A DNA stretch of 64,000 nt from NCBI GenBank assembly GCA_046261715.1, contig JBHEOF010000001.1:29690-93689 (forward strand). The letters are read 5' to 3'. The notes under the pieces were generated by a model. That model did no database searches, was not told where the DNA came from, and worked only from the letters and a program-made list of their open reading frames with translations. This stretch comes from Bacteroidales bacterium (GTDB taxonomy: Bacteria > Bacteroidota > Bacteroidia > Bacteroidales > UBA7960). The position numbers and the translations under genes are program-made. Of the stretch, positions 6,126-64,000 are shown in pieces (position 1 is the first letter of the stretch; each line of letters begins with the position of its first letter).

Positions 6126-6139
6126 AATCCCCTGACTTT

Positions 6140-7009
6140 ATGAAATGGATATTATTGATATTTGTATCGGTTTTTTCTTTAGCTTACTGTAACCCGATTG
6201 GCAATAATGCCGATGGGGAGAGTAACGACATCAAGGGCAGCTTATTTATTATTGGTGGGGGCAGCCGACCTGATCATCTCGTTAACCGAATGATTGATGA
6301 AGCCAATCTGCGTAATGAAGGCTATGCAGTAGTTTTGCCCATGTCAAGTTCAGTGCCCGATTCTGCTATCATATGGGCTTCAGAACAATTTCACCGCAAT
6401 GGAATAGATAATGTAACAGGATTCAATTTTTTACCCGGCGGGTACATCCCGCTTCAGTGGATCGACTCGTTAAAAAATGCTTCACTGATTTATATTAGTG
6501 GTGGTGATCAAAATCGGTTTATGGCAGTTGCCGGGGAGAATGAAATTGAAGAAGCCTTACATTATGCTTACAAAAACGGGGCCTTGATTGCAGGTACAAG
6601 CGCAGGAGCAGCCGTAATGAGTGAATTAATGATTACCGGAGATGAATTGCGCTATCCCGACTATACTTCCACCTTCCGCACCATTGAATCTAAAAACTTG
6701 GAAGTAAAAAGAGGTCTGGGATTGGTTACTTCTGCCATAATTGACCAGCATTTTGTTTACCGAAGCCGCCACAACCGTTTGTTTACTGCCGTTATTGAAT
6801 ATCCGGAACAGATAGGTATAGGGATTGATGAATCAACGGCCATACTTGTAAAAGGTAATGAAGCTGAAGTTGTGGGAGAATCTCAGGTAATGATCTTTAA
6901 AAATCCCAATAACTCTTACAAGGAAAAAAACACCAAGCTGGGAGCGCTTAATCTGGTAATTGATATTTACTTACCTGGCGAAAAATTTTCAATGAATTTA
7001 CACCAATAA
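6140..7009 (+). CDS. cyanophycinase-like peptidase (family S51), exported lipoprotein
   Basis: 289 aa. Signal and lipobox (VFSLAYC), LFIIGGGSRPD near the N-terminus, ISGGDQNRF, and the serine nucleophile motif GTSAGAAVMSE. The size fits cyanophycinase rather than the ~230-aa PepE. Confidence 0.72.
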   Translation: MKWILLIFVSVFSLAYCNPIGNNADGESNDIKGSLFIIGGGSRPDHLVNRMIDEANLRNEGYAVVLPMSSSVPDSAIIWASEQFHRNGIDNVTGFNFLPGGYIPLQWIDSLKNASLIYISGGDQNRFMAVAGENEIEEALHYAYKNGALIAGTSAGAAVMSELMITGDELRYPDYTSTFRTIESKNLEVKRGLGLVTSAIIDQHFVYRSRHNRLFTAVIEYPEQIGIGIDESTAILVKGNEAEVVGESQVMIFKNPNNSYKEKNTKLGALNLVIDIYLPGEKFSMNLHQ

Positions 7010-14999: not shown

Positions 15000-15018
15000 A
15001 AACATGATTTAAAATAAA

Positions 15019-15060
15019 GAAGGCTCCCATGCATTACCCTGTTTAGGGAGCCTTCCTTTT
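15019..15060 (+). terminator. intrinsic terminator-like hairpin
   Basis: GAAGGCTCCC...GGGAGCCTTC is a 10-bp perfect stem with a ~17-nt loop, followed by CTTTTATAAAATTTT. Confidence 0.5.
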
Positions 15061-15130
15061 ATAAAATTTTCATGGGTATTTCCTATAACGACCCTAAAAA
15101 ACATATTATCTAACCTAAAAACAATAAAAA

Positions 15131-16579
15131 ATGCAGCGTATAGCCATAATAATATTATTTGCATTAGGTTTGGCGTTTCAAAGCCATGCACAAAATGAAA
15201 CCGATGCTTTAAGATATTCATTGTTTAATCCGGGCGGAACCGCAAGATTTGTTAGTACAGGCGGTGCATTCGGAGCTCTCGGTGGAGACTTCTCCACACT
15301 GAGTGCAAACCCTGCGGGTATTGCCATTTACAGAAGCAATGAGTTTACAATTACCCCTGCACTGAACTTCAGCAAAGTGGAATCAAACTACTTTGGAACT
15401 TTTGCTGATGATATCAACTATAATTTTAATGTGGGTAATATTGGACTTGTGCTGGCCTTTAACGATCCCAACCAGTTGAAAGAGTCAGGTTGGATGGGTT
15501 TTCAGTTCGGATTTGGACTAAACCGGCATTCCAACTTTAACAACAGAAAGATCTACGAAGGATTTAACACGGAAAGTTCTTTAATGACTGATTACCTCTA
15601 CAGGGTATTTGATGCAGGAATTGATCCGGGAAATCCGGGTGGGTTTGAGCCTTTCACAACTGATTTAGCATGGGAAACATTGCTGATTGATACCATTAAC
15701 GGTGAGTTTATAGTGGATATGGAAAACGGAAATGTTCTCCAGCGAAGAGAAACCCAAACCAGTGGTTCGGTGCGTGAAATGGTGCTTACCTTAGGTGGCA
15801 ATTACAGCAATCGACTTTATTTGGGAGCCACTTTCGGTTTTCCTTCAGTTAGATTTGAAGAAGAATATACATATACTGAAGAAGATGTAAACAACACAAA
15901 CGAATTCTTCAATTCACTTGAGTACAGGGAAACTTTAAGAACTTCAGGAACAGGATTTAACTTTAAGCTGGGTATGATTTATCGTGCAACCGATATGATA
16001 CGTATAGGAGCAGCGGTGCATACACCTACTTTTTACAACCTTGAAGATGAGTGGCGCACTCAAATGAATTCTGATTTAAGTTTTGGAAATTATGAAGCAG
16101 CTTCACCACGGGGCCGTCACAGTTATGAGTTAAATACTCCGCTGCGGCTTATTGGTAGTCTCGGACTGGTATTCGGAACAAACGGACTTTTTAGCCTTGA
16201 CTACGAGTATGCTGATTACACACAGATGCGTTTGAGAAGCAGCGCTGCATCATTCTCAGCTGAAAACAACATCATCAGAAACAGTTTTCAGCAGCAGCAC
16301 AATATAAGGGCTGGTGGAGAAATACGGCTAGATCCATTGATTTTGAGAGCAGGTTATGCATATCATTCCAACCCTTACAAATCAGGTATTAATGAGATGG
16401 AAAGGAACACCTTGAGCGCAGGATTTGGTATACGCGACCAAAGCTATTTTGTTGATTTCGGTTATTATTATACTCAATATTCTGAAGATTTCTATCCCTA
16501 TTCCGCCGATCTGACCCCGGCAGTAAATTATGATTATTCAAGAAATGGATTTCTTATGACTTTGGGATTCAGATTTTAA
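15131..16579 (+). CDS. outer-membrane beta-barrel protein, FadL/OmpP1-like transport-protein fold
   Basis: 482 aa. Signal peptide ends HAQ. N-terminal hatch-like motif DALRYS....GTARF.S.GGAFGALGGD.S.LS.NPAG. Alternating beta-strand pattern, with a C-terminal aromatic strand FLMTLGFRF. Confidence 0.6.
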   Translation: MQRIAIIILFALGLAFQSHAQNETDALRYSLFNPGGTARFVSTGGAFGALGGDFSTLSANPAGIAIYRSNEFTITPALNFSKVESNYFGTFADDINYNFNVGNIGLVLAFNDPNQLKESGWMGFQFGFGLNRHSNFNNRKIYEGFNTESSLMTDYLYRVFDAGIDPGNPGGFEPFTTDLAWETLLIDTINGEFIVDMENGNVLQRRETQTSGSVREMVLTLGGNYSNRLYLGATFGFPSVRFEEEYTYTEEDVNNTNEFFNSLEYRETLRTSGTGFNFKLGMIYRATDMIRIGAAVHTPTFYNLEDEWRTQMNSDLSFGNYEAASPRGRHSYELNTPLRLIGSLGLVFGTNGLFSLDYEYADYTQMRLRSSAASFSAENNIIRNSFQQQHNIRAGGEIRLDPLILRAGYAYHSNPYKSGINEMERNTLSAGFGIRDQSYFVDFGYYYTQYSEDFYPYSADLTPAVNYDYSRNGFLMTLGFRF

Positions 16580-30667: not shown

Positions 30668-32527
30668 TTATTGTGCGGAAATATCCCAGATCACCTCTAC
30701 ATCCCAGTTAAGTCTTGACTGGATTTTATCCGGAAAAACATACACCTTCTCGGGCTGAACTTCATCAAGATAGGTACCTGTATCCCACATTCCATTCCGG
30801 TTACTGTCTTCAACAAGCCGAAACCTGAAAGTTGAAGCCGGCAAATATTCAAATTGATAAATATCACTTTCGGAAATAATTTTTTCATCCACAATTTCAA
30901 ATTTCTCAGTAAGCAGCTGAAGTAAAAATTGTTTTTGTGGCTCCGGATCCTGAATTGTGTCATTGATGATTTGTAAAGTATCATCTTCAACTATACCCGG
31001 CAATGTTATATTAGCCATAATATAGCCATAGTCTTCCCGTGTAGTTGTTCTGAAGGAATAAGATAATGTATCATTTGTTGCTCCGAAAATATCAGTAAGA
31101 GCCCCGGGCAGCAGCCTGACCAGATACGTAGAATCCTGTTCCATAAAAGATTTGAAATGTAAACGCCGTTTTGTAATGTCTGCAAATTCAAATTCTGCTT
31201 CTGCAGGAATACTGTCACTGACAAAAACCTGCACTGAGTCAGGTATAAACTCTCTTACAGGCGTTTGGCTTACCAGTTCAAAACTCCTGAAAAATGGTTG
31301 TTTTCGGGCCTTAAGTGTAGGTGTACTTATATTTAGTACCGGCCCTTCCTCCTGCTGAGGGGTTCCTCTTCCCCGCACAGCGCGAACTGTTAATGAGATA
31401 TTTACTGTATCGAGTAAACGATCATGATCATAAACCTTTAAAAAGAGTGAATCTCTCTCTGATTCAGAGAACCATATGGCCAGAGTATCCCGGTTCCGGT
31501 TGTATTCTTTAATATTCCAGTTTTCAGGTAAGGGTTCTTTGTAATCTGTAAAATGCACAGAGTCAACCGGAGCACGAAAAGCAAAACTGATTCTTCCCTT
31601 GCGTGTAAGCGTTGATGCCATCAACCTTTGAAGGGTATCTTTTTCCTGGAAAAGGAATAATTCATAGCGATGAATATCCGTTGTCATCTGCAAATCAGAT
31701 AAACTATCTGCAGGGCTTACTACATCCGGATTTTCGGTAATCGTATCATTTTGTTGAAGGGGTGTAACTTCAATTGAGTCACCTGTAAGGGTATCAGCTT
31801 CTGCAATTTCCTTTTCCCTGCCTAAAGGTTCTATAAACTCAGGTTTTATTAAACTGTCAATAAACCCGATCATTTCATCCGGGTTATCGTAAAGGTAATT
31901 CGTGTTAACATCCTTAAGAGCAAACATCAGGTACTCTCCTTCACGCATATTGCTTATAAAAAAATTGCCTTCTTTATCGGTTTTTGACAAGTAAACCGGC
32001 CGCTGAAGCATAGGAACCGAGTCAAAAACATCATCATACAACATTACAAAAACATCTTCTTCAGGTTCAAGGGTAAGGGCGTTTTTCACATTGCCCGTTA
32101 CCGATAATGAATCAACATAACTACCCGTTGAAACCACAAATTGAAAATTTGGGATGGCATTGCCTTCGGTTATGTCAACAATGGATTCACCAAAAAAGAA
32201 ATTGTAAGTGGTATTCTCCATTAAAGTATCTTCAACCGACATAATTACAGAGCGACCCCGAACCCTAATTTCAGGATCATTTTGCAATGGGGGTGAAACT
32301 AAAAGGTTTTGTCTGAGATCTTTGATTTCAACAAACTCATTGAAAAATATTCGTACATCCTGTCCTTCATAATAGGTTGAATAATTTGGTGGTGTGCTTC
32401 TTAACACAACCGGCGGATCTTCATCTTCCGGTCCTCCAGTGGGGGCTACCACATTAGCACATGCAGCTAATACAATTATAAGTGCACTGTAAATTAAGTT
32501 TCTTGAGAAAGATGGCAACTTCACCAT
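30668..32527 (-). CDS. Ig-like (SbsA/Big_5-type) domain lipoprotein of unknown function
   Basis: Lipoprotein signal MVKLPSFSRNLIYSALIIVLAAC is followed by PTGGPEDEDPPVVLRSTPPN...FNEFVE, typical of Bacteroidota Ig-like-domain lipoproteins. The ORF-track start at 32563 is an alternative. Confidence 0.6.
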   Translation of the reverse strand: MVKLPSFSRNLIYSALIIVLAACANVVAPTGGPEDEDPPVVLRSTPPNYSTYYEGQDVRIFFNEFVEIKDLRQNLLVSPPLQNDPEIRVRGRSVIMSVEDTLMENTTYNFFFGESIVDITEGNAIPNFQFVVSTGSYVDSLSVTGNVKNALTLEPEEDVFVMLYDDVFDSVPMLQRPVYLSKTDKEGNFFISNMREGEYLMFALKDVNTNYLYDNPDEMIGFIDSLIKPEFIEPLGREKEIAEADTLTGDSIEVTPLQQNDTITENPDVVSPADSLSDLQMTTDIHRYELFLFQEKDTLQRLMASTLTRKGRISFAFRAPVDSVHFTDYKEPLPENWNIKEYNRNRDTLAIWFSESERDSLFLKVYDHDRLLDTVNISLTVRAVRGRGTPQQEEGPVLNISTPTLKARKQPFFRSFELVSQTPVREFIPDSVQVFVSDSIPAEAEFEFADITKRRLHFKSFMEQDSTYLVRLLPGALTDIFGATNDTLSYSFRTTTREDYGYIMANITLPGIVEDDTLQIINDTIQDPEPQKQFLLQLLTEKFEIVDEKIISESDIYQFEYLPASTFRFRLVEDSNRNGMWDTGTYLDEVQPEKVYVFPDKIQSRLNWDVEVIWDISAQ

Positions 32528-32819
32528 GATGAGATAACAAATTAATTTGTCGGTTTTAATCATTCAACGTCAAAGGCATGGCAAAATTATCAATATTTAC
32601 GGAAAGATGTTCTTTAAAACATAATGACAAAGAAATATGACTACTTATGGCTATATGTTTTTGGTTCAATTGAATATATTTCGTACATTTGAGATGATAA
32701 ACCATTAGTCGTTCCTTTAGTTTATCTTCTGGCTGTTTCGGTATCCCCTGAAGATTTCCCCAATTTCCCTTTTGTCTTCAATTCCATTTCCCCTGACCGG
32801 AACAGCCTTTTTGTATCCT

Positions 32820-35446: not shown

Positions 35447-36010
35447 TTAGTTGCCTGCAAAAAAGAGAGGTTTATCTGACCTTTTATCGGCCCACAAAAT
35501 GATTATAAATACCAGCAGGGCAAAAAGTATATTCCAGAAATAATCATGAATGTTGTAAAAAACATTTGTGGAATAGTTGCCAATGGCTCCCATAATTAAA
35601 AATCTCATTTTATTGGCAATAAATATAACTCCTGTCATTATTACAAAATTTATTGCTTTATTTTTTATCGACCAGGGCATAAATATCGAAATCATCAGGA
35701 TAAAAATATAGAAATTATATGCAGTACATTCCAGGATCACTTCCATGCCAAACCCGGAAAAATTCAGTGCCGGGAATCCCCCATCAGAAACTGGTAACTG
35801 CAGTAGTTTCCCTGTTGCTATAACTGATTTGTGTGTAAAGTTTACCATAAAATGCCTTATAACATCTTTTATACCCGGTAAATGAACCATAGCCAGTAAA
35901 AGAAACCATCCTGAGAATGAAAACAACAGAGGTTTTATTCTTTTAAGATACTCTCTCCGCAACTTATCTCTTTGTTTTGCCTTTTCCCTGAGTTCTTTAC
36001 TATTTGCCAC
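35447..36010 (-). CDS. exosortase/archaeosortase-family protein (XrtF-like by size and phylum)
   Basis: 187 aa with a GTG start and a basic cytoplasmic N-terminus followed by TM helices. The family triad is present in canonical order: Cys in VILECTAYNF, Asn-x-x-Arg in IANKMRFLIMG, and His in YNIHDYFWN. Confidence 0.7.
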   Translation of the reverse strand: MANSKELREKAKQRDKLRREYLKRIKPLLFSFSGWFLLLAMVHLPGIKDVIRHFMVNFTHKSVIATGKLLQLPVSDGGFPALNFSGFGMEVILECTAYNFYIFILMISIFMPWSIKNKAINFVIMTGVIFIANKMRFLIMGAIGNYSTNVFYNIHDYFWNILFALLVFIIILWADKRSDKPLFFAGN

Positions 36011-36194: not shown

Positions 36195-37133
36195 ATGAAA
36201 AAGTTTTTTTCCCTGTTATTTATTCTTGGTTTTATTACAGTGTATGCACAGGAGCGCAATGCCGATCCTGCCAAACAATGGGATATTTCAAAAGAAAATG
36301 ATTGTGAAGGGTTTTCATTGAATTTTTTTGATGAGGAACTTGTAACAGCAGACACCCTGATCACAAAAATTTTAGGTGATGATATCCAATCATACAGTAT
36401 ATTGAATTCTCAGGCTGCTACCGGTCAAAATGCATCTGCGGGTATATTTAATGGTGGAAATGCTGCGGGAATTAACCTGGAAAGTGGAATAATACTGAGT
36501 TCCGGATTTATAAAAAACGTAACCGGACCGAATGAATATTCCGGAGTAACAGGAGTATTGAATCTGCCGGGCGATGAAGACATGGAAGCTCTTATACCCG
36601 GCTATGAAACCCTTGACGCAACCATACTTGAGTTTTCATTTATACCGGTTCATGACACACTCTTCATAAGCTTTGTTTTTGGATCTGATGAGTACAATGA
36701 ATGGGTCGGCTCACCTTACAATGATGTATTTGGATTTTTTCTGAATGGTGAAAACATTGCTTTGGTTCCTGAAACAAATGACAGAATATCAGTAAATAGT
36801 ATCAATAATTTCAGTAATAATAATTTTTTTATAAATAATGATGAGCGTCCAGGTCTGTTTTGCAATGAAATGGATGGTTTCACAACTTTACTGACTGCCA
36901 TAGGTATTGTTTCACCCGGTGAATTAAACCACATAAAGCTGGCCATTGCCGATGCCGGCGACAGAAGTTTCGACTCCTGGGTTTTTATCAAAAGTGGCGG
37001 TTTTACCGGCATTGATCCGGGTGATCCTGATGACGACGATCCGGTTCCATTACCCCTGAAAAACTGGCCCATATTTCTTATAATGATAATGATACTGGTT
37101 TTCACCTTCATTAAGATCAGAAGATCTGCATAA
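36195..37133 (+). CDS. secreted choice-of-anchor-L-like protein with a PEP-CTERM-like C-terminal sorting signal
   Basis: 312 aa. Signal peptide MKKFFSLLFILGFITVYAQ. The core reads LEFSFIP..DTLFISFVFGSDEYNEWVGSPYNDVFGFFLNGENIALVP...DG.T..L. The C-terminus is DPGDPDDDDPVPLPLKNW-PIFLIMIMILVFTFI-KIRRSA. Confidence 0.7.
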   Translation: MKKFFSLLFILGFITVYAQERNADPAKQWDISKENDCEGFSLNFFDEELVTADTLITKILGDDIQSYSILNSQAATGQNASAGIFNGGNAAGINLESGIILSSGFIKNVTGPNEYSGVTGVLNLPGDEDMEALIPGYETLDATILEFSFIPVHDTLFISFVFGSDEYNEWVGSPYNDVFGFFLNGENIALVPETNDRISVNSINNFSNNNFFINNDERPGLFCNEMDGFTTLLTAIGIVSPGELNHIKLAIADAGDRSFDSWVFIKSGGFTGIDPGDPDDDDPVPLPLKNWPIFLIMIMILVFTFIKIRRSA

Positions 37134-40628: not shown

Positions 40629-40701
<73 letters not shown>

Positions 40702-40704
40702 CAA

Positions 40705-40778: not shown

Positions 40779-40863
40779 GCCCGGATGGTGGAATTGGTAG
40801 ACACCCAGGACTTAAAATCCTGTGGCCATTGCGGCCGTGCCGGTTCGAGCCCGGCTCCGGGTA
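40779..40863 (+). tRNA. tRNA-Leu (anticodon TAA), type II with long variable arm
   Basis: GCCCGGA-TG-GTGG-AATTGGTAG-ACAC-...-CAGGA-CTTAAAA-TCCTG-(variable arm TGGCCATTGCGGCCGT)-GCCGG-TTCGAGC-CCGGC-TCCGGGT-A. Confidence 0.95.
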
Positions 40864-40876
40864 CGTTTTAAAGCTC

Positions 40877-40905
40877 AGCCTCCTGATTATCAGGGGGCTT
40901 TTTTA
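40877..40905 (+). terminator. intrinsic terminator after tRNA-Leu
   Basis: AGCCTCCTGA-TTA-TCAGGGGGCT (10-bp stem with one G.U pair) followed by T6. Confidence 0.65.
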
Positions 40906-40988: not shown

Positions 40989-42374
40989 CTACTTTCTGAA
41001 CTTCTTAATAAACTCTTCCACTTCCGGCAATCCTCCCTGGTAAACCAGGTAACCATTATAAGGTTCCCGGGGAGTAATATCATCGTTCATCGGGGTAAGC
41101 ATCATGCGTTTTACTTCTTCGGGGTCGTTGGTTTGCCCAAGTACCCAACCCAGTTTTATATAAGCCACTTCGGGTAACATATTTTCAGCGGGTATAACCC
41201 CCAGTGCCATAAGCTCGCGACCAGTTTCATACACAAACATGTGTACATAACCCCAAAGGGTTTGCACAGTCATATAAACTGCAACACCTTTTTTACAGGC
41301 TCGTTTCAATGCAGGATAAAGCGGTTTGTTGACATGACCCAAACCCGTTCCGGCAATAATGATACCCTTGTAACCATTATCAACAAGAGAATCTATCATA
41401 TCAGGCATCATATTGGGGTAGTAGTATACCATGGCTACTTTTTCTTCAAAATAAGGATAGATCTTCACCTTATTATCCTTGCGCCTTGGGTTATATTCAG
41501 TTTTAATAGGTACCACACCCTTCCTTGTAACCCTGGCCAAAGGAGTATCACCCAGTGTGCGAAATGTACTGCGATATGAAGAATGCATTTTCCTGACCCG
41601 GGTACCACGATGTAGCAGCGCGTATTCATCAGAGGTGGGCCCGAACATGCATACCATTACTTCTGCGATATCAGCATAACCGGCCGTATAACATGCATGC
41701 ATAAGATTCAGAGCTGCATCAGAAGAAGGCCTGTCGGATGAACGCTGCGAACCAACCAGTACAATGGGTACCGGCGAATCCTGTATCATATAGGTCAATG
41801 CAGCGGCGGTATGATGCAGGGTATCGGTACCATGCCCGATCACGATACCCTGTATTCCGTTTTCAATCTCTTTACCAATGGCAACAGCCAGCTTTTTATA
41901 CTGTTCCGGACCCATATTTTCGCTAAAAACAGCAAAAACCTTTTCTGTAGTAAGATTGCAGATATCAGCCAACTCGGGTACTGCACCATACAATTCACCC
42001 GGACTGAAGGCCGGAATCACTGCTCCGGTCCGGTAATCGAGCCGCGATGCAATAGTACCGCCGGTTCCAATAAGTTTTACTTTGGGCAAACCTTTGGTAT
42101 AGGGAAACTCTTTCTCCGGAATCTTGTAGTTTGCCTTCTTATAGCCTGTTTCCTTCATTGACAAAATGGTGCCCACATCAATACCAATATTGTATCCCGT
42201 ATCAATTTTTAACACAATGTGGGTGTCATCATCATTTTCAGACCTGGGAAGTACGGTGCCTGAAAAATTACCCCGGGAGGTTTCGATCTTACACTGCCCC
42301 CAAACCCTAACATTATATTTTTTAAGCACCTTTAGTGCTGTATTCTTATAGCCCTGAAAATAATCTTCTGCCAT
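40989..42374 (-). CDS. gatD: archaeal-type Glu-tRNA(Gln) amidotransferase subunit D homologue (GatD)
   Basis: 461 aa. GatD-specific N-terminal domain (CKIETSRGNFSGTVLP...VLKIDTGYNIGIDV). The asparaginase core carries GTGGTIASRLDYRTGAV, GHGTDT and the GatD hallmark VGSQRSSDRPSSDAALNL...RKMHSS.R..F. Confidence 0.88.
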   Translation of the reverse strand: MAEDYFQGYKNTALKVLKKYNVRVWGQCKIETSRGNFSGTVLPRSENDDDTHIVLKIDTGYNIGIDVGTILSMKETGYKKANYKIPEKEFPYTKGLPKVKLIGTGGTIASRLDYRTGAVIPAFSPGELYGAVPELADICNLTTEKVFAVFSENMGPEQYKKLAVAIGKEIENGIQGIVIGHGTDTLHHTAAALTYMIQDSPVPIVLVGSQRSSDRPSSDAALNLMHACYTAGYADIAEVMVCMFGPTSDEYALLHRGTRVRKMHSSYRSTFRTLGDTPLARVTRKGVVPIKTEYNPRRKDNKVKIYPYFEEKVAMVYYYPNMMPDMIDSLVDNGYKGIIIAGTGLGHVNKPLYPALKRACKKGVAVYMTVQTLWGYVHMFVYETGRELMALGVIPAENMLPEVAYIKLGWVLGQTNDPEEVKRMMLTPMNDDITPREPYNGYLVYQGGLPEVEEFIKKFRK

Positions 42375-42402
42375 CTGATTTTATTTTTATTATTTATGTG
42401 AG

Positions 42403-44382
42403 TTATTCGCATTCTTTTTCACCAATCTTTTTCCTGAGTTCCTGTAAACTGATATTTCCGAGAGCTTTTGAACGCAGGCGACCCATGATCCAATCGGTTC
42501 TGGCATCAGTTCTTTTACTTTTTCGTATTGCACAATACTTATTTTCAAGAAAAGGAATATCTTCAAGAATCTGCTTCACAGAATATGGCTTGTATTTAAC
42601 GCTAATAAGAAGCGAATCAAAATCCATTTTGGGATGCTGATACAAAACCGGCAGCAAATCAAATACGATTGCCATATCAAGTTTCTTTTTCCTGATTTTT
42701 TTTATCAGCATAGATATAAGACCATAATGAAAATCTTTTGATGCCGGAAATTGTCCTTCAATATATTTGAGTCTGTGCCCCAGCAATGTACCTGCAAATA
42801 CCGGGTCTTCATTTAATTCTGTAATTAGTTTTTCCAAAACAGGAAAAAGATCTTTTTTCAGAATATATTCATAAGTATCTTCCGGGATTCCCCATTTTTG
42901 CATTTGTCTGTAAGCATTGATGGACGCTACAGGGATTCTTTTTCGCAGCTCATCAATATAATCATCTTTCAAAGGTATGGGTGCCGAATCGGTATCCGGG
43001 TACATTCGATCGGCACCGGGCAAAACACGTTCAAAGATGGTAGTACCATCGGGCATAGATTTGCGGGTTTCGTTGGGAACGCCGTCAAATGCCCATTTAC
43101 ACCTTTCTTCAACGGTTTCCGCGGCGGTAGGCATATCATCTTCCGGCCCCCAGAAAACCAGCAACGCATCATCTGTGCGGGCAGAAAGCATTTTTTTGAT
43201 CATGACCCAGCTTTTCTCTCCAATTATGGGTTTAAGGTTTTCGTCATGATCCATATTGGGTATTTCAATACAGGCAATTACTTTCAGCCGTTCACTTATT
43301 TCATCGGCAAATACTTTCCCGGGCTGTGTAAAATGCGAAAGGATTCCTCTGAAACCCGGTAATGCCAATGCGTACATATGCCATTTATTTTCTTTTACCT
43401 GCTTTGCAAATCTGGGTTTCAGCTCAAGAGCTTCAGGATCCAGCCGCTGCGATTGCATTTTCCATAGATCAGGATTTTTTACTTTATTTTGCAGCAACGA
43501 CCTAACATTAAGCAGTGCCCACTGCCGGAAACTTTCATTGTGTGTAAGTAAAGGTATCTGGCGAATGCGTGGCACACCCTTGATCTCAATCCGGGTACCC
43601 CCGCGACAACTCACATTTACATCCTGTCGTGCAGCGCCCATTCCCGTCATTACTTTACCCGTACTTCTGTTTAAAAAACGGATGAACTGGCACGCATCGG
43701 CTACTTCCTTCGGATTTACCATATCAGGGTAAGTTACTGTTTCAATAAGCGGCATGCCCAACCGGTCGGTTTTGTAAATGCGCCTGTGCCCCACGTCTGA
43801 TATTTCACGACATGAATCTTCCTCAATACTCAATTGTATGAGCCTGATTTTTTTATAAGGTAGCTCAATCTCTCCCTCCACCCCAATTATGGCGGTGCGT
43901 TGAAACCCGGTGGGTATACTCCCGTCAAGGTATTGCTTGCGTGTAATATGCACTTCTCCAACAATATTGAGTTTTTTCAGCAGGGAGACCTCAATGGCAA
44001 TTTCAAGGGCTTCACGGTTAAGAGGGAAAGGTGGAGTATCATCAACCTCGTAAGTACAGGTGGTTTCGTTCTTAATCCGGTACACAATTTCTTTACGGGT
44101 TTTAAACTCCATAAGAGCTGTTCCGTCATATTCGCCCAGTTCGCTGAGTGTTGGCCGCATATGGCGAATTACTTCAGCGTCGTATTCATTATCATTCTGG
44201 TATATACCTGTTGGGCAGCGGCAGAAAAGCTTTTTATCTGTTTTTAATTGCTGATGAACTTCTAGCCCCGACATAAATCCGATACGATCATAATCGGCCT
44301 GGGTAGCATCTTTAAAGTTCACATAGCCAATAGACTCAAGCGTTTGCTTGTAATTCCGGCGGGCATCAAACTTTTTTTTCAC
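42403..44382 (-). CDS. gatE: archaeal-type Glu-tRNA(Gln) amidotransferase subunit E homologue (GatE)
   Basis: 659 aa. Motifs GLEVHQQLKT.KKLFCRCP, RHMRPTLSELGEYDGTAL, YEVDDTPPFPLN, RKQYLDGSIPTGFQRTAII and LSIEEDSCR, plus a long insertion and a YqeY-like tail. It has the GatE/GatB kinase-type fold at GatE length and lies adjacent to gatD. Confidence 0.82.
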   Translation of the reverse strand: MKKKFDARRNYKQTLESIGYVNFKDATQADYDRIGFMSGLEVHQQLKTDKKLFCRCPTGIYQNDNEYDAEVIRHMRPTLSELGEYDGTALMEFKTRKEIVYRIKNETTCTYEVDDTPPFPLNREALEIAIEVSLLKKLNIVGEVHITRKQYLDGSIPTGFQRTAIIGVEGEIELPYKKIRLIQLSIEEDSCREISDVGHRRIYKTDRLGMPLIETVTYPDMVNPKEVADACQFIRFLNRSTGKVMTGMGAARQDVNVSCRGGTRIEIKGVPRIRQIPLLTHNESFRQWALLNVRSLLQNKVKNPDLWKMQSQRLDPEALELKPRFAKQVKENKWHMYALALPGFRGILSHFTQPGKVFADEISERLKVIACIEIPNMDHDENLKPIIGEKSWVMIKKMLSARTDDALLVFWGPEDDMPTAAETVEERCKWAFDGVPNETRKSMPDGTTIFERVLPGADRMYPDTDSAPIPLKDDYIDELRKRIPVASINAYRQMQKWGIPEDTYEYILKKDLFPVLEKLITELNEDPVFAGTLLGHRLKYIEGQFPASKDFHYGLISMLIKKIRKKKLDMAIVFDLLPVLYQHPKMDFDSLLISVKYKPYSVKQILEDIPFLENKYCAIRKSKRTDARTDWIMGRLRSKALGNISLQELRKKIGEKECE

Positions 44383-44399: not shown

Positions 44400-45527
44400 T
44401 TAATTTTCTGATTTTATGTAATTTACGTTTCTTTCTTCGAGATAATCCATAACAAATTCAAAGGCATCTTCATCCATACCAATAAGTTCAGGAGGAAAAA
44501 CTCCTTTCCCCGAAAATCTTCCCTGCAAGATCAGTTCTGCATGTGCTGTTGCAGTAAAACCGGTTGTGCGGGACATGGAAGCCAAACCGGCTTTTTCATC
44601 AAACTCATCATACAGATCATACGTTATAGTATGCGGTTTGCCATCCATTTTTCCTTGTACTTTTATTCTCATAACAGTAAAGTCATGTTCACCGGCATCA
44701 AGCTTCCAGTCATTGATCAAAACCTTGCTGGTAAAATCAATGGGCCGTATAGCTGTGTTGTTTACAGTAATCGGATCTTTTTTAAAGAAGCCTGCTGTTT
44801 TAAGAGCCTGGATAAGATTGATATGTCCGGGATATCTGAGTGTTTTTTCTTTCATATTGGGAATATGCGGCAGATTCTTCAGCAACGACCTCAAGCCATC
44901 AGTATAAAATGCCTCAAGGGTTCCCACTTTTTCAAAAAATAACAGCTCAGGTTCGCTCATGGCTGGTTTAGTCATTTGCTTTCCCTTCTCAATATAGCGT
45001 GCCGGCCGGGTATACTCTTCAATAACATCTATCGGAGAAAAAGGTGCTTTGTAATAAAAAGGGTAAATTTTTACTTTTGGCAACCCTCCAACCATGTATT
45101 CAAGGCTCTCTATCTCCATAATTTCATTGAGATAACCTGCAATAAGATTGGGTATGCCCGGAGCAACACCGCAATCGGTTATGGCAGTTACCCCCTTTTC
45201 AGCCGCCAATGCATTCAGGGCCATGTAATCTTCGGGCATAAAAGAAATATCTACAATATTCTTTCCGGCTTGAATTACCGTACGTAACAGATCGAAACCC
45301 ATAAAACCAGGTACTGCAGATATTACAAGATCAAAGCCGGAGATTAGCTTGGTTATACTTTCTTCCTCCATGAAGTTAACCGGCTGAGTTTTTATACCAA
45401 AATTACTTTTCAGAAATTCCAGTGATTTTTTATCAATATCAGCTGATGTAACATCATGATTTTCTGAAAGATCGATAGCAATTGCTTTACCTATCATTCC
45501 TGCGCCCAATACGATTATCTTGCTCAT
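44400..45527 (-). CDS. saccharopine-dehydrogenase-family NAD(P)-binding oxidoreductase
   Basis: 375 aa. N-terminal Rossmann motif KIIVLGAGMIGKAIAIDL and a Sacchrp_dh-like C-terminal domain. It ends 17 nt before the gatE start on the same strand. Confidence 0.78.
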   Translation of the reverse strand: MSKIIVLGAGMIGKAIAIDLSENHDVTSADIDKKSLEFLKSNFGIKTQPVNFMEEESITKLISGFDLVISAVPGFMGFDLLRTVIQAGKNIVDISFMPEDYMALNALAAEKGVTAITDCGVAPGIPNLIAGYLNEIMEIESLEYMVGGLPKVKIYPFYYKAPFSPIDVIEEYTRPARYIEKGKQMTKPAMSEPELLFFEKVGTLEAFYTDGLRSLLKNLPHIPNMKEKTLRYPGHINLIQALKTAGFFKKDPITVNNTAIRPIDFTSKVLINDWKLDAGEHDFTVMRIKVQGKMDGKPHTITYDLYDEFDEKAGLASMSRTTGFTATAHAELILQGRFSGKGVFPPELIGMDEDAFEFVMDYLEERNVNYIKSEN

Positions 45528-49875: not shown

Positions 49876-50032
49876 GACCAGGCTATTACATTGATATACA
49901 TAAGAGCAGCTAATTTTTTTTAATTATTTTTGTCGTTCAAAAAAAATACTTTTACAATATAAGCCAGTGAATTGCAATTGGAATCGCTGGAAAGCATTAA
50001 ACACCAGACTAAAATTAGATGATTATTTTCTG

Positions 50033-51007
50033 ATGAAACATATTCTTACTATCATTCTACTCACATTCATTTTTATTGCTCAGGTATTTCCCCAAAGGCA
50101 AGCCTGGCAGCGCAATCGTCATCATGCTGCGCTGGGACTTGGAGCTGCAGGTTTTATGGGTGATCTTGGCGGAGCTGACAAAACTGGAACGCAAGGTCTC
50201 AGAGATTTTGATTTTGCTGCCGTAAGACCATCACTGATGATTGGGTACCGATATTTATTGCTTGAAAACCTTGCTGTTTCAACCCATTTAACTTTTGCAT
50301 ATGTTGCAGGTGATGATAAAAACACAAATGAGTTACATCGTAACAACCGGAATATTAATTTCCGCTCGCCTGTAATTGAATTCGCACCCAAGTTGCAATA
50401 TTATTTTATTTCCTATGAGAGGGTTGGAGCTCGCCACGGAAGGGCAACAGGAATAAGGGTAAGAAGACAAATGGATATTTCTGCGTATATCTTTACCGGA
50501 GTTGCCGGATTTTATTTTAATCCACAGGGATATTTTGATGCAGAAAATTATTCGGGAACTATACCTGCTGATGAATTGCCATCAAATGGCTGGTATAACC
50601 TAAGGCCACTTTCTACCGAAGGGCAGGGCTATTTCCCAACCCGTAGGAATTACTCTTCATTTTCTCTTGCCATACCTTTTGGAATAGGTGGGTTATTGCA
50701 TATAAACAGAGACATGTCTGTAGGCGTTGAATTTGGATTCCGAACAACTTTTACCGATTACATTGATGATGTAAGTACCACATATGTTAACCCGGCTATT
50801 TACCAGGAAATATTCTCTGATCCCGGGCAAGTAGCATTGGCTGAATATTTTGCCAATCCAACCATTAACACCCTGGATGCAAGTACTACGGCGCCAGGGC
50901 AGCAAAGGGGAAGTCCGTTCAATACTGACGCCTATATGTTTACAATGTTTACTTTTTACTACAGAATTCCTAACCTTACCAGACCATCCAGGGTTTGGGG
51001 AAATTAA
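50033..51007 (+). CDS. DUF6089-like outer-membrane beta-barrel protein (paralog 1)
   Basis: Start chosen at MKHILTIILLTFIFIAQVFPQ (ATG 50033). Shares LGLGAAGFMGDLGG, LHRNNRNINFRS, LSTEGQG and DYIDDVSTTY blocks with the next gene. Confidence 0.7.
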   Translation: MKHILTIILLTFIFIAQVFPQRQAWQRNRHHAALGLGAAGFMGDLGGADKTGTQGLRDFDFAAVRPSLMIGYRYLLLENLAVSTHLTFAYVAGDDKNTNELHRNNRNINFRSPVIEFAPKLQYYFISYERVGARHGRATGIRVRRQMDISAYIFTGVAGFYFNPQGYFDAENYSGTIPADELPSNGWYNLRPLSTEGQGYFPTRRNYSSFSLAIPFGIGGLLHINRDMSVGVEFGFRTTFTDYIDDVSTTYVNPAIYQEIFSDPGQVALAEYFANPTINTLDASTTAPGQQRGSPFNTDAYMFTMFTFYYRIPNLTRPSRVWGN

Positions 51008-51134: not shown

Positions 51135-51986
51135 ATGTTAAAAAACCACAAGCTATTCTTCAAGCCAGTTGCTTTGATCAGAGTTATTTTTATTACTTTT
51201 CTTACCATTTTTTGCTACTCCGGGGTAAATGCCCAAAGAAACGAAATAGGCTTTATGTTTGGCGGCACATATTATATGGGCGATCTTAATCCTGAAATTC
51301 CTTTTGTAATGAACCGGATCGGTGGTGGTGCATTATACAGGTTTAACATCAACAAACATATTGCTTTGAGAGCTAATTTTTTATATGGTAGTGTTGAAGG
51401 TGATGATGTTGCCACAAACTACAATGAGACCCGGAACCTACATTTTCGATCAACTATTACAGAATTTTCTGTGCAGGGCGAAGTGAACTTCCTGCCCTTT
51501 GAACCCGGTGATTTGGAAACACCCTATTCTACTTATATTTTTGGTGGCGGCGGCCTTTTTCTTTTTAACCCAAGGGCTGAGCTGAATGGCAGTTGGTACG
51601 ATCTTAAACCATTGGCAACCGAAGGGCAGGGCTCTGATCTGTATCCCGAGCGAAAACCTTATTCATTAACTTCATACAACTTTCTTTTTGGAGTTGGGTT
51701 AAAATTTAATATTACGAAGCAGATCACTGGTGCTTTTGAATGGGGTATGCGACGCACAGGAACCGACTACCTCGATGATGTCAGCACAACATACCCCGAT
51801 CCTTCTGTTTTTGGAGGTAATGACCTGGCAATTCAACTGCACGACCGCAGCCTTGAAAACCGGGGTGAAAACGCCGGTTTTCAAAGGGGAAATCCCAATG
51901 TAAAGGACTGGTATTCCTTCGCCGGGTTAATTCTTACTTTCAGGATAAAAAACTTCAGCAGAGAAATATGCCCGGCTTACAATTAA
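51135..51986 (+). CDS. DUF6089-like outer-membrane beta-barrel protein (paralog 2)
   Basis: 283 aa with FMFGGTYYMGDLNP, RNLHFRSTITE, LATEGQG and DYLDDVSTTY. It is clearly paralogous to the preceding gene. Confidence 0.7.
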   Translation: MLKNHKLFFKPVALIRVIFITFLTIFCYSGVNAQRNEIGFMFGGTYYMGDLNPEIPFVMNRIGGGALYRFNINKHIALRANFLYGSVEGDDVATNYNETRNLHFRSTITEFSVQGEVNFLPFEPGDLETPYSTYIFGGGGLFLFNPRAELNGSWYDLKPLATEGQGSDLYPERKPYSLTSYNFLFGVGLKFNITKQITGAFEWGMRRTGTDYLDDVSTTYPDPSVFGGNDLAIQLHDRSLENRGENAGFQRGNPNVKDWYSFAGLILTFRIKNFSREICPAYN

Positions 51987-59796: not shown

Positions 59797-60891
59797 TCAC
59801 GCCAGGTCGATTTCATCATTGAGGTACACGTCCTGAATAGAGTTCAGCAGTTGTACGCCTTCTTTCATAGGGCGTTGAAATGCTTTTCGTCCGGAAATCA
59901 AACCCGCTCCACCGGCACGTTTATTAATAACAGCCGTTCGAACGGCATCCTGTAAATCGTTTTTTCCTGATGCACCTCCGGAATTGATAAGCCCGATTTT
60001 TCCCATGTAATTGTTTATAACCTGGTACCGGCAGAGATCGATGGGATGGTCTGACGATAGTTCTTCGTACATGCCGGGATGCGTTTTCCCAAACTTCAGC
60101 ACTTCGAATCCCCTGTTTGTAGTGGGTAGTTTTTGCTTTATGATATCGGCTTTCAGAGTTACACCAAGATGGTTGGCCTGACCGGTAAGGTCGACTGCGG
60201 TATGGTAGTCATCGTCCTTTTCCTTAAATGCTCCGTTTCGGGTGTAACACCACAAAATAGTGGCCATTCCCAGTTCATGGGCATGCTCAAAGGCATGTGA
60301 TACTTCAATGATCTGCCGGTTCGATTCTTCGGAACCGAAATATATGGTTGCCCCCACAGCTGCTGCCCCCAGGTTCCATGCCTCGTGCACTGATCCGAAC
60401 ATGATCTGGTCGTGTTTGTTGGGAAAGGTCATCAACTCATTATGATTAATTTTTACGATGAACGGAATTTTGTGGGCGTATTTTCGCGAATGCAGCGCCA
60501 ATCCGCCAAAAGTACTAGCCACACCGTTGCAGCCTCCTTCGATGGCCAGCTTAATGATATTTTCCGGGTCGAAATAATCGGGGTTGGGAGCAAATGAGCT
60601 TCCTGCTGTGTGCTCAATTCCCTGGTCGACCGGCAAAATGGAAAGGTAGCCGGTGCCGGCAAGTCTGCCCGAATTATACAATGCTCCAAGATTGCGAAGC
60701 ACCTGTGCGTTGCGATCGCTGTTAGCAAATATATCATCAATATGATGAGGTCCGGGCCTGTAGAGCTTTTCTGCAGGGATGGTCTGCGACCGGTAATCCA
60801 GTAAATCCCTGTTCTCTTCTCCAAGTAAGGCTGCAATTTTTTCTAAGTTATTTATAGGTGTATCCATGTTATGAAATTTTTCTTTTAGCAC
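59797..60891 (-). CDS. fbaB: class I fructose-bisphosphate aldolase, FbaB/DhnA type
   Basis: 364 aa. Near-colinear with my recollection of E. coli FbaB: LRN...[74 protein letters not shown] and [17 protein letters not shown]. Confidence 0.9.
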
Positions 60892-61562: not shown

Positions 61563-62435
61563 ATGCATAAATCCGGTTTCGTAAACATATTAGGCAAGCC
61601 CAATGTGGGCAAATCCACTTTGATGAATGCCCTGCTGGGTGAAAAACTTTCCATCATTACCCCCAAAGCACAAACCACCCGCCACCGCATACTGGGCATT
61701 GCCAATGATGATGACTACCAGATCGTATTTTCCGATACCCCGGGGATCATAAAGCCGGGCTACAAGCTGCAGGAGCATATGATGAGTTTTGTGCAATCGG
61801 CCATGGAAGACGCCGATCTTTTTATCCTGGTAACGGAAATAGATGACGATTTCAAGGATGAGAAAACGCTGAATAAGCTTCATAAGACGGATATTCCCGT
61901 ATTACTTCTTATAAATAAGATTGACCTGGCCAGCCAGGACCAGGTGGTAGCCAAGTGCGAGCAGTGGAAGCGTGATTTTCCATCCTTTCTGGTGCTGCCC
62001 ATCTCGGCCATCAACAACTTCAACCTCGACCAGGTGATGAGCAAGATCCTGGAGATCATACCCGAAAATCCGCCATATTTCCCCAAAGACGAACTTACTG
62101 ATCGCCCCATGCGGTTTTTCATCGCTGAAATGATCAGGGAAAAGATTTTAATGAACTACCAGAAAGAGATCCCCTATTCTGTAGAAGTGGTGGTGGAGGA
62201 ATACAAAGAAGAAGAAAAGCTGGTACGCATCCGTTGTGTTATTTTTGTAGCCCGCGATTCGCAAAAGGGAATCATCATCGGCCACAAAGGCAGCGCTCTA
62301 AAGCGCATAGGCACCCAGGCCCGCAAAGACATCGAAGAATTTATCGGCAAGCAGGCTTTCATCGATCTGCATGTAAAAGTGAGCAAAAACTGGCGTGATA
62401 GTGATTTGCAGCTGGGGCGGTTTGGGTACAGGTAG
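61563..62435 (+). CDS. era: GTPase Era
   Basis: Start chosen at MHKSGFVNILGKPNVGKSTLMNAL (ATG 61563). Motifs G1 GKPNVGKS, G3 DTPG and G4 NKID, with a C-terminal KH domain (IIGHKGSALKRIG). Confidence 0.93.
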   Translation: MHKSGFVNILGKPNVGKSTLMNALLGEKLSIITPKAQTTRHRILGIANDDDYQIVFSDTPGIIKPGYKLQEHMMSFVQSAMEDADLFILVTEIDDDFKDEKTLNKLHKTDIPVLLLINKIDLASQDQVVAKCEQWKRDFPSFLVLPISAINNFNLDQVMSKILEIIPENPPYFPKDELTDRPMRFFIAEMIREKILMNYQKEIPYSVEVVVEEYKEEEKLVRIRCVIFVARDSQKGIIIGHKGSALKRIGTQARKDIEEFIGKQAFIDLHVKVSKNWRDSDLQLGRFGYR

Positions 62436-62600
62436 AGTTTACCGCGGAGACGCAATGGCGGGGAGTTCGCAGAGAGTTATAAAATTTTTTTTCTTGCTTT
62501 CCATATAACATCCCCTAACCCCCTTAAAAGGGGGAATAGTTCGGTATTTAATTCATACTTTTGCTATGATTACCGGCTTCGGTCTTCGGTCTTAAACCTT

Positions 62601-64000
62601 TCAACCTTCTTTCATACTCATTTGTATCCTCTTCCTCCCCACATCCACATCCATAATGGTAACCATAACTTTTTGATTGAGTTTTACTACTTCTGACGGG
62701 TTACTGATGAACCGGTCGGCCATCTGGCTGATGTGTACCAGTCCGTCCTGGTGGGCGCCCACATCCACAAAGGCACCGAAGGCAGTGATATTGGTTACAA
62801 TACCGGGAAGTTTCATCCCCGGGCGCAGGTCGTGGATACTTTTTACCGATGGGTCAAACTCAAACACTTCAATTTCCTTGCGGGGATCGCGTCCGGGTTT
62901 GGCCAGTTCGGCCATGATATCCTTCAGGGTGGGCAGTCCCGCTGTTTCGGTTTTGTATTTTTCCAGCACGATCTGTTTACGGAGTTCTTCCTTTTTCATC
63001 AGGTCACCTACCGCTACCCCCAGGTCTTTGGCCATGGCATCCACGATATGGTAACTCTCGGGGTGCACGGCACTTTTGTCGAGCGGGTTTTTGCTCTGGC
63101 TCACCCGCATAAAGCCTGCAGCCTGCTCAAAGGCTTTGGCACCAAAGCGCGGTACTTTTTTCAGGGCGGTGCGCGAGGCAAAGGGACCGTTTTCGTTGCG
63201 GTATTCCACAATATTTTTGGCAAGCACGGGCCCCAGTCCGGACACGTAGGTCAGCAGTTCCTTGCTGGCGGTATTCACTTCCACTCCCACAGCGTTCACT
63301 GCACTGACCACCACATCATCCAGACTGTTTTTCAGCAGTTTCTGATCCACATCATGCTGGTACTGCCCCACCCCAATGGATTTGGGATCGATCTTTACCA
63401 GTTCGGCCAGCGGATCGGCCAGGCGCCGGCCAATACTCACAGCGCCACGCACGGTAACATCATAATCGGGGAATTCTTCCCGGGCCACAGCCGATGCAGA
63501 ATACACCGATGCACCGCTCTCATTGACCATAACGGCCATGATATCGCGCGGGAAACGGATACTGCGTACCAGCGATTCGGTTTCGCGCCCGCCGGTGCCA
63601 TTACCGATGGAGATGGCTTCGATATCATAGGCATTTACCAGGCTCTGTATTTTGGCTGCCGCTTCTTTTCTTTTGTTATGGGGCGGATGGGGATAAATAT
63701 TTTCGTTGTGAAGCAGTTTTCCCTGTTTGTCGAGACACACTAACTTGCAACCGGTGCGCAGGCCCGGGTCAATGGCCAGTATGTTTTTCTGCCCCAGGGG
63801 TGGCGCAAGCAGCAACTGACGCAGATTATCTGCAAATACCCTGATGGCTTCCTCATCGGCTTTCAACTTAAACAGTTGCCGCATCTCGGTTTCCATGGAT
63901 GGGGCCAATAACCTTTTGTAGCTGTCTCTTACAGCCATCTCTACCTGCTCCGATGCCTTGTTGTTCCCTTTTACAAACATATCTTCAAGAATTTCAAGGG
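62601..64000 (-). CDS. tex: Tex-like RNA-binding transcription accessory protein, C-terminal ~465 aa (gene continues past the right edge)
   Basis: The frame stays open to the window edge (..LEILEDMFVKGNN..). It has a YqgF/RuvC-like region (ILAIDPGLRTGCK), an HhH region and a C-terminal S1 domain (GIVTNITAFGAFVDVGAHQDGLVHISQM). Confidence 0.9.
   Translation of the reverse strand, partial: LEILEDMFVKGNNKASEQVEMAVRDSYKRLLAPSMETEMRQLFKLKADEEAIRVFADNLRQLLLAPPLGQKNILAIDPGLRTGCKLVCLDKQGKLLHNENIYPHPPHNKRKEAAAKIQSLVNAYDIEAISIGNGTGGRETESLVRSIRFPRDIMAVMVNESGASVYSASAVAREEFPDYDVTVRGAVSIGRRLADPLAELVKIDPKSIGVGQYQHDVDQKLLKNSLDDVVVSAVNAVGVEVNTASKELLTYVSGLGPVLAKNIVEYRNENGPFASRTALKKVPRFGAKAFEQAAGFMRVSQSKNPLDKSAVHPESYHIVDAMAKDLGVAVGDLMKKEELRKQIVLEKYKTETAGLPTLKDIMAELAKPGRDPRKEIEVFEFDPSVKSIHDLRPGMKLPGIVTNITAFGAFVDVGAHQDGLVHISQMADRFISNPSEVVKLNQKVMVTIMDVDVGRKRIQMSMKEG

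Follow-up and report, generated by a model that had tools for sequence, protein, structure and literature searches.

A 64,000-nucleotide (nt) stretch of the Bacteroidales bacterium contig JBHEOF010000001.1 (the window) carries, side by side on its minus strand, genes for the two putative subunits of GatDE, an amidotransferase that acts on glutamyl-tRNA(Gln) (Glu-tRNA(Gln)). Reviews published from 2008 to 2022 (including PMC2330236) regard GatDE as a signature protein of archaea that occurs nowhere else, and scenarios for LUCA, the last universal common ancestor, and for the origin of glutamine coding have been built on it. The first gene, gatE (42403..44382, minus strand), has a GTG start and encodes a 659-residue protein assigned as the kinase/transamidase subunit, with matches to TIGR00134 and Pfam GatB_N. 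It is followed on the same strand, after the 28 nt given by the window's list of open reading frames (ORFs), by gatD (40989..42374), which has an ATG start and encodes a 461-residue glutaminase subunit, asparaginase-like and with a GatD-specific N-terminal domain, matched by NF003217. A first-pass annotation of the window had described both ORFs as full length with intact catalytic motifs, and each motif that it quoted was found: in GatD, GTGGTIAS (residues 103-110), HGTDT (181-185) and SQRSSDRPSSDA (209-220); in GatE, GLEVHQQL (39-46), LFCRCP (52-57), RPTLSELGE (76-84), DDTPP (114-118) and DGSIPTGFQRT (153-163).

The GatD and GatE family memberships proposed in that annotation also held when the proteins were compared with NCBIfam equivalog models. 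GatD scored 509 bits against NF003217 (cutoff 310) and 506 bits against TIGR02153 (cutoff 324), and GatE 402.7 bits against the archaeal GatE model TIGR00134 (gatE_arch; cutoff 319.55). At 383 bits (cutoff 260.5), GatD also passed TIGR00519, a generic model of the type I asparaginase subfamily, though with less than its GatD-specific scores. Its Pfam architecture comprises GatD_N (residues 28-68, 46 bits), Asparaginase (98-287, 186 bits) and Asparaginase_C (312-425, 122 bits). Among solved structures, the top sequence match of GatE was the archaeal GatE chain 2d6f_C (E 1e-88, residues 30-654 aligned), with GatB chains at E 5e-18, and the top match of GatD was the archaeal GatD chain 1zq1_A (E 2e-118, residues 34-443 aligned), with ordinary asparaginases at E 2e-35. 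Judged by these comparisons, the ORF pair is confirmed as full-length gatE and gatD, the family assignment lying far beyond chance.

Two other identities were ruled out. The 659-residue protein is not assigned as the GatB subunit of GatCAB, since its score against the best GatB model, TIGR00133, is well under the cutoff (116.5 versus 314.8 bits) and its partner is an asparaginase-type GatD. The 461-residue protein is likewise not a free-standing asparaginase, as it contains GatD_N and scores only 125 bits against the AnsA model NF006998 (cutoff 376) and 137 bits against the AnsB model NF008304 (cutoff 506). Both proteins thus fall outside the ordinary bacterial GatB and asparaginase families, the check that the first-pass annotation had proposed for its assignment.

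Conserved catalytic centres, fold and selection

An alignment with 2d6f_C identified GatE residues His43, Glu187 and Glu214 as the equivalents of the Mg2+ ligands His15, Glu157 and Glu184 of Methanothermobacter thermautotrophicus GatE, mutants of which lose both kinase and transamidase activity (PMC2330236). These three residues are kept in every GatE that has a residue at the respective column (98, 99 and 99 of 99 aligned sequences). In GatD, Thr107 (in GGTIAS), Thr183 and Asp184 (in HGTDT) and Lys262 (in VRKMH) are invariant across 68 bacterial and archaeal GatD sequences. GatE modelled with AlphaFold2 (predicted local distance difference test score, pLDDT, 85.3) matched the folds of the GatE chains 1zq1_C from Pyrococcus abyssi (E 4e-42) and 2d6f_D from M. 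thermautotrophicus (E 1e-40), with template modelling scores of 0.75-0.79, while GatB chains followed at about E 1e-20. The model matches GatE chains across 513-544 columns and shows, in addition, weak fold matches to aspartyl-tRNA synthetase (AspRS); GatE residues ~300-430, the AspRS-like insertion, align to archaeal GatE with at most 9% gaps. The catalytic residues and the fold of the bacterial pair are therefore intact, and homology predicts that it is active.

Comparison with close relatives gave ratios of non-synonymous to synonymous substitution rates (dN/dS) of 0.02 for gatD and 0.05-0.07 for gatE, with 0.04-0.05 for the neighbouring PBP2 gene. Both gatE and gatD are under strong purifying selection, in a range like that of the adjoining PBP2 gene.

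Distinctive features of the Bacteroidales-type GatE

Three regions set the GatE of the window and its closest relatives (the Bacteroidales type) apart. At the N-terminus, the segment ahead of the catalytic His43 (residues 1-42; 44257..44382, minus strand) is ~26 residues longer than in archaeal GatE, this His being preceded by a median of 42 residues in the Bacteroidales type, compared with 28 for other bacterial GatE and 16 for archaeal GatE. Over residues 1-30, the window GatE shares 73% identity with the consensus of its own clade, and AlphaFold2 places helices at residues 7-18 and 28-34, with block-mean pLDDT values of 81-96 over residues 1-40. A Pfam search of the N-terminal extension gave no match.

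The second region is the block CTYEVDDTPPF (residues 109-119; 44026..44058, minus strand), seen in the alignment as a signature of the bacterial clade. The first-pass annotation had singled out CTYEVDDTPP as divergent; the divergence is real, and is shared by all bacterial GatE. The pattern C-T-Y-E-[V/M]-D-D-T-P-P-F is near-invariant in 55 bacterial GatE sequences, whereas archaeal GatE has C-L-V-E-x-D-E-E-P-P-H at this position.

The third is the C-terminal helical region and tail (residues 473-659; 42406..42966, minus strand), in which divergence is strongest over residues 541-659 (nt 42406-42762). In archaeal GatE, the tail binds the D-loop of the tRNA and reads it by shape. The tail of the window GatE is 57-60% identical to sequences inside its own clade and 7-30% identical to the bacterial or archaeal consensus. 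Profile-profile comparison with hhalign nevertheless aligned it to the tails of other bacterial GatE with 99.4% probability and to archaeal tails with 99.2% probability, over ~185 columns, the score of the window-type tail reaching about half the value obtained when other bacterial tails are compared with archaeal ones. AlphaFold2 makes the tail all-helical (block-mean pLDDT 71-94 for residues 471-650). Taken together, these comparisons indicate a tail that is strongly diverged and still homologous over its full length. The Pfam GAD domain was detected in a basal bacterial member (P0157) and was not detected in the window GatE.

Relatives and gene order

A search of 5.8 billion proteins (clustered at 90% identity) returned more than 120 clusters at 63-92% identity to the window GatE, and those among them that carry a name are all recorded as 'MAG: GatE [Bacteroidales/Bacteroidetes bacterium]'. 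Every named relative derives from a metagenome-assembled genome (MAG), and no cultured carrier was found among them. When one genome per GTDB species was scanned, with a reach set by the peptide patterns employed, 97 loci were found, of which 80 were kept (L001-L080). Almost all of these stem from Bacteroidales or Bacteroidota MAGs (Lentimicrobiaceae, Prolixibacteraceae and others), among them a complete MAG chromosome of 4.6 Mb; a few belong to MAGs that bear the labels Aminicenantes, Chlorobiota, UBP2, Acidobacteria, Edwardsbacteria or Saprospiraceae. Across the fetched loci, identity to the window proteins was 76-97% for GatD, which has 461 residues wherever it is complete, and 56-92% for GatE. 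Neither the window nor the fetched loci, 1.3 Mb in all, yielded a second sequence resembling GatE/GatB or GatD/asparaginase.

The order gatE then gatD was seen in ~70 of the 80 loci, and gatD is the sole conserved partner of gatE. A saccharopine-dehydrogenase-family gene, mrdA and rodA are syntenic with the pair only in the 12 closest loci, which come from independent assemblies; in ~30 other loci, the pair lies in another stable neighbourhood, with genes for OstA/LptD, an N-acetylmuramoyl-alanine amidase, MlaD, RidA, an M16 peptidase and ClC. That the two genes have stayed adjacent in two distinct stable neighbourhoods points to a long residence of the pair in at least two bacterial chromosomal contexts.

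Bacteroidales-type gatE and gatD, with GatD 76-81% identical to that of the window, were also seen in MAGs labelled Aminicenantes, Chlorobiota, UBP2 and Acidobacteria (loci L016, L018, L036 and L072). L016 is from Candidatus Aminicenans sakinawicola, in which the pair lies on a 145-kb contig next to unrelated genes (GH127, Hsp90); other Aminicenantes carry a different bacterial type of GatE. In L018, the pair has a Bacteroidales OstA-like neighbour. The occurrence of the Bacteroidales type in these MAGs points to either inter-phylum transfer or mis-binning.

Beyond the Bacteroidales type, the same gene order was found in four contigs of the wider bacterial clade (L081, L082, L084 and L085). 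In a fifth, a 4.3-Mb bacterial contig (L083, 7833-9318), the gene after gatE is split, with an unannotated 224-residue ORF on the opposite strand and an asparaginase-like ORF of just 266 residues, which could reflect either a disrupted gatD or an assembly error.

Chromosomal setting of the pair

The first-pass annotation had called the surrounding genes unambiguously bacterial, and so they proved. The window encodes SusC/SusD, a cyanophycinase, prolyl- and cysteinyl-tRNA synthetases (ProRS and CysRS), LpxK, DnaG, subunits of methylmalonyl-CoA decarboxylase, RibE, Skp, PBP2/MrdA, RodA, NAD kinase, two PorG paralogues, UppS, BamA, MutS and Era. The G+C content, the G+C content at third codon positions and the codon usage of gatE and gatD all lie within one standard deviation of the 40 genes of the window, and gatE is the least deviant of the 40. 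Host-matching codon usage on what is a typical Bacteroidota chromosome thus excludes both a chimera and a recent import.

Within this chromosome, gatE and gatD lie between a pair of tRNA genes and the saccharopine-dehydrogenase-family gene. The tRNA genes, for tRNA-Gly(GCC) (40629-40702, plus strand) and tRNA-Leu(TAA) (40779-40864, plus strand), are convergent with gatD, and a strong hairpin followed by a T-run lies beside them at 40877-40899. Related loci repeat these tRNA species, Leu-TAA seven times and Gly-GCC six times. A scan for sigma-70 promoters and terminators found no enrichment over shuffled sequence, the sigma-70 scan being uninformative for Bacteroidota promoters.

On the other side, the saccharopine-dehydrogenase-family gene (44400..45527, minus strand; 375 residues, Pfam Sacchrp_dh_NADP and Sacchrp_dh_C) ends 17 nt upstream of gatE, and its product has a weak, 39-bit match to carboxynorspermidine synthase. 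It is probably co-transcribed with gatE and gatD in this family-level lineage only. A functional tie between this gene and the pair was considered and dropped, as the 12 closest loci (L001-L011 and L067) are the only ones to have them side by side.

Phylogeny and origin of the bacterial GatDE lineage

An exhaustive phmmer search of 1.84 billion representative sequences with the window GatE gave graded matches. One cluster corresponded to the Bacteroidales type; ~40 clusters scored 400-600 bits at 41-53% identity; and the rest of the matches listed, down to ~260 bits, were mostly full length at 29-38% identity (in a separate PDB search, the M. thermautotrophicus GatE chain scored 301.5 bits). 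Wherever members of the intermediate group carry a name, it is a bacterial one (Deltaproteobacteria, Myxococcota, Pseudomonadota, Aminicenantes/Acidobacteriota, Calditrichaeota and CSSED10-310), whereas the names found at low scores belong to archaea (Heimdall-, Thor- and Parvarchaeota, and Thermoprotei). The most basal intermediate GatE gene adjoins genes for Lnt, MurC/MurD, MraZ and RsmH, a bacterial context, and other intermediate GatE genes sit on contigs of 4.3 Mb and 5.0 Mb, such large contigs being labelled, where they bear a name, only as Acidobacteriota MAGs.

In a neighbour-joining tree of GatE (99 sequences, 620 columns, 200 bootstraps), the Bacteroidales type formed a clade with 100% support, and all bacterial GatE were separated from all archaeal GatE with 97% support. 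The tree does not settle where within the bacterial clade the Bacteroidales type branches, and the nearest archaeal neighbour, a Heimdallarchaeota GatE, has a support of only 55%. Identities followed the same split: the window GatE is 40-92% identical to its closest relatives, which are bacterial, versus 27-35% to archaeal GatE, and the window GatD is 61-69% identical to other bacterial GatD and 46-48% to those of P. abyssi and M. thermautotrophicus. These sequence comparisons place the window GatE inside a multi-phylum bacterial GatDE clade. The first-pass annotation had offered two origins, an old transfer from archaea to Bacteroidota or a bacterial GatDE clade. The clade is borne out by both bootstrap values; a direct transfer from an archaeon to Bacteroidota is unsupported, because the nearest relatives are other bacteria.

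When the tree was rooted with five GatB outgroup sequences taken from PDB alignments (neighbour-joining, 435 columns, 300 replicates), archaeal GatE was monophyletic in 10% of replicates, and the sister of the outgroup was purely archaeal in 278 of 300. This rooting weakly favours an archaeal origin of the bacterial GatE clade, the evidence being weak because a distance method was combined with a very distant outgroup, so that long-branch attraction is likely. The most likely history is a single ancient acquisition from archaea, followed by a long period of vertical descent and spread between bacteria.

Two other histories were weighed against it. If GatDE were older than the split between archaea and bacteria, it could have survived as a vertical relic in a few bacterial phyla with no acquisition from archaea, much as in the LUCA scenario for GatDE that a passage of PMC9499178 cites from Sheppard and Soll. 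The separation of the bacterial GatE, from several phyla, into one clade apart from all sampled archaeal GatE is what such a history would leave, and the midpoint root of the tree falls between the bacterial and archaeal groups. However, the GatB-rooted tree, weak and prone to long-branch effects as it is, puts the root inside archaea with bacteria derived; the bacterial distribution is patchy and, in Bacteroidota, confined to a subset of uncultured lineages; and the Bacteroidales-type sequences in MAGs labelled Aminicenantes, Chlorobiota and UBP2 suggest transfer between bacteria. We therefore consider a vertical relic unlikely. A recent direct transfer from an archaeon, or an archaeal/bacterial chimera created in assembly or binning, is what the archaea-only description of GatDE in reviews would lead one to suspect, and the first-pass annotation had itself raised the chimera. 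This explanation is hardly credible and is refuted by several observations: bacterial genes stand on both sides of the pair in one contiguous sequence, the G+C content and codon usage are like those of the host, the pair recurs with the same mrdA/rodA neighbours in 12 independent assemblies and in the same gene order in most of the fetched bacterial loci, and its closest relatives are bacterial by a wide difference in identity.

Other features of the window

Several features lie away from gatE and gatD. At 839-7009 (plus strand), SusC/SusD genes are followed by genes for a choice-of-anchor J protein, a cyanophycinase-like peptidase and a YfcC-type basic amino acid antiporter, an arrangement that may represent a polysaccharide-utilisation-type locus directed at cyanophycin or peptides and not at glycans. 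Fructose-bisphosphate aldolases of both classes are encoded, class II at 9956-11035 (plus strand) and class I at 59797-60891 (minus strand), each well above its equivalog cutoff. Two long ORFs of 578 and 482 residues, without NCBIfam match, occupy 13263-16579 (plus strand), a stretch with the second-highest G+C content of the window (0.465; the highest, 0.501, is at 62001-64000) and its strongest AT skew (+0.19). A further ORF without NCBIfam match, of 631 residues, lies at 30668-32563 (minus strand). A small exosortase/archaeosortase-family protein is encoded at 35447-36010 (minus strand), and a choice-of-anchor L protein at 36195-37133. Two PorG-like outer-membrane proteins of type IX secretion are encoded in tandem at 49967-51007 and 51135-51986 (both plus strand), the first being the longer and scoring 85.8 bits against a cutoff of 130.

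Discussion

The pair described here shares with archaeal GatDE (2D6F, 1ZQ1) its organisation as two subunits encoded by adjacent genes; a GatD made of GatD_N and a two-domain asparaginase with a Thr nucleophile and a Thr/Asp/Lys centre; and a GatE comprising a cradle with His/Glu/Glu Mg2+ ligands, an AspRS-like insertion, a helical domain and a tail, for which archaeal GatE is also the best fold match. It differs in its bacterial host, in sequence (GatE is only ~29-35% and GatD ~46-48% identical to the archaeal proteins), in the longer N-terminus of GatE, in the CTYEVDDTPPF block and in a tail that lies beyond Pfam detection. With the other bacterial GatE and GatD, from Acidobacteriota/Aminicenantes, Myxococcota/'Deltaproteobacteria', Calditrichota and CSSED10-310 MAGs, it shares the clade, the gatE-gatD order (the stop and start codons often overlap or adjoin in these other MAGs) and the CTYE(V/M)DDTPPF block. 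Those GatE proteins are, however, only 35-48% identical to that of the window, have a shorter N-terminus and mostly retain a detectable GatB_Yqey domain, sometimes with GAD. Bacterial GatCAB catalyses the same overall reaction and has a common GatB/E catalytic core and a YqeY-type tail, GatB being a paralogue of GatE. In contrast to the pair studied here, which has an asparaginase-type GatD and no GatC, it uses an amidase-type GatA together with GatC, and its GatB lacks the AspRS-like insertion; fold matches to GatB are weaker by ~20 orders of magnitude. The glutaminyl-tRNA synthetase (GlnRS) route of most Bacteroidetes yields the same product, Gln-tRNA(Gln), but does so by direct charging with a single enzyme.

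We consider it probable that the pair is a working GatDE like the archaeal enzyme, serving as a Glu-tRNA(Gln) amidotransferase in an uncultured member of the Bacteroidales. Homology with the enzymes of M. thermautotrophicus and P. abyssi suggests a reaction that would begin with a glutamyl-tRNA synthetase (GluRS) that accepts tRNA(Gln) and so makes Glu-tRNA(Gln). GatE would bind this misacylated tRNA with the cradle, the AspRS-like insertion and the C-terminal tail, and would phosphorylate the gamma-carboxyl group using ATP/Mg2+ held by His43, Glu187 and Glu214. GatD would hydrolyse Gln or Asn at an asparaginase-type centre, with Thr107 as the nucleophile together with Thr183, Asp184 and Lys262, and the ammonia released would reach GatE by a tunnel between the subunits of a predicted alpha2-beta2 complex, so that Gln-tRNA(Gln) is formed. 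We infer both the activity and the use of bacterial Glu-tRNA(Gln) as substrate from this homology. Archaeal GatDE recognises the A1-U72 pair and the archaeal D-loop, and the GatCAB of Staphylococcus aureus positively recognises U1-A72 of bacterial tRNA(Gln) (PMC2330236). Recognition by the Bacteroidales enzyme would therefore have to differ from that by archaeal GatDE if the substrate is the same, and the remodelled tail and N-terminal extension are plausible adaptations to bacterial tRNA; the remodelling of the tail, in particular, would reflect adaptation to a tRNA(Gln) with U1-A72 and a different D-loop.

A number of observations weigh against this assignment of function. Of the 14 Bacteroidetes genomes covered by a 2014 survey, 12 combined GlnRS with a discriminating GluRS and lacked gatCAB (PMC3927822), so that GatDE could be redundant in such a background, or could be left without its Glu-tRNA(Gln) substrate. 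No tRNA(Gln) gene is present in the window, which holds only tRNA-Gly(GCC), tRNA-Leu(TAA) and tRNA-Met genes, or in the 80 kept loci, which hold only Gly and Leu tRNA genes. GatE falls one bit short of the equivalog model NF003107 (454.8 versus a cutoff of 456). Pfam GatB_Yqey was undetected in its tail even at E<=10, yet is detected in other bacterial GatE, and divergence beyond Pfam detection leaves room for a changed substrate. As to the enzymes of the alternative routes, none of glnS, gltX, asnS or gatA/B/C is present in the 64-kb window, and glnS, gltX and gatCAB are missing from the fetched loci as well. The search for glnS, which covered the window and all 1.3 Mb of loci, gave no match, the query being an Escherichia coli sequence and the ~15-kb flanks saying nothing about whole genomes. 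Either GlnRS has been lost and GatDE works with a non-discriminating GluRS, or both routes coexist, or GatDE has another substrate.

The last of these options would make the pair a neofunctionalised GatDE that has kept its kinase and amidase chemistry and turned to Asp-tRNA(Asn), to another misacylated or specialised tRNA, or to a non-translational tRNA-dependent amidation, with GlnRS supplying Gln-tRNA(Gln). The first-pass annotation had itself suggested that the tRNA or substrate might be altered, an idea with which the strongly diverged tail would be consistent. The GlnRS-positive, gatCAB-negative background with its discriminating GluRS (PMC3927822) is what one would expect in that case, and the parts of GatE that have changed are suggestive: the tail that in archaea reads the D-loop has lost both its Pfam signature and most of its identity to other GatE tails, there is an extra segment at the N-terminus, and CTYEVDDTPPF replaces CLVExDEEPPH near the active site. 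Against this stand the invariance of all catalytic and Mg2+-binding residues and of the GatD centre, the homology of the tail along its full length, and selection as strong as that on an essential gene. Furthermore, only gatD is conserved beside gatE across lineages, the neighbours being housekeeping envelope genes with no biosynthetic-cluster context, and other bacterial members retain canonical GatB_Yqey and GAD domains. On balance, a new substrate seems improbable, and we favour amidation of Glu-tRNA(Gln).

The claim that GatDE occurs in archaea only fails for this pair, which lies on a Bacteroidota host chromosome and has relatives in many bacterial MAGs. Since that claim is taxonomic and not biochemical, its failure does not weaken membership of the enzyme family. 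Hundreds of the bacterial proteins have already been named GatD or GatE by automated pipelines, which marks them as members of a known enzyme family and not as a new kind of system. A full-text literature search, with subscription-only literature outside its reach, found no paper that reports or discusses bacterial GatDE. A large GatDE lineage in several bacterial phyla has thus apparently gone undiscussed in the literature. The use of gatD and gatE as archaeal marker genes could misjudge the contamination or the domain of origin of MAGs.

A conserved, multi-phylum bacterial GatDE changes the data behind the LUCA and glutamine-coding scenarios. It also raises the questions of how a GatE adapted to A1-U72 and archaeal D-loops recognises bacterial tRNA(Gln), of a non-discriminating GluRS as its partner, and of the replacement of GlnRS or GatCAB. 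A more far-reaching proposal, which we put forward tentatively and hold to be possible though somewhat doubtful, is that in a subset of Bacteroidales, in a phylum that otherwise depends on GlnRS and lacks an amidotransferase, GatDE is the essential route to Gln-tRNA(Gln), having displaced GlnRS, with its tail and N-terminus re-engineered for bacterial tRNA(Gln), as part of a deep, multi-phylum GatDE lineage. If true, the displacement of GlnRS by GatDE would have turned a direct pathway back into an indirect one, and would offer a natural experiment in how tRNA identity co-evolves.

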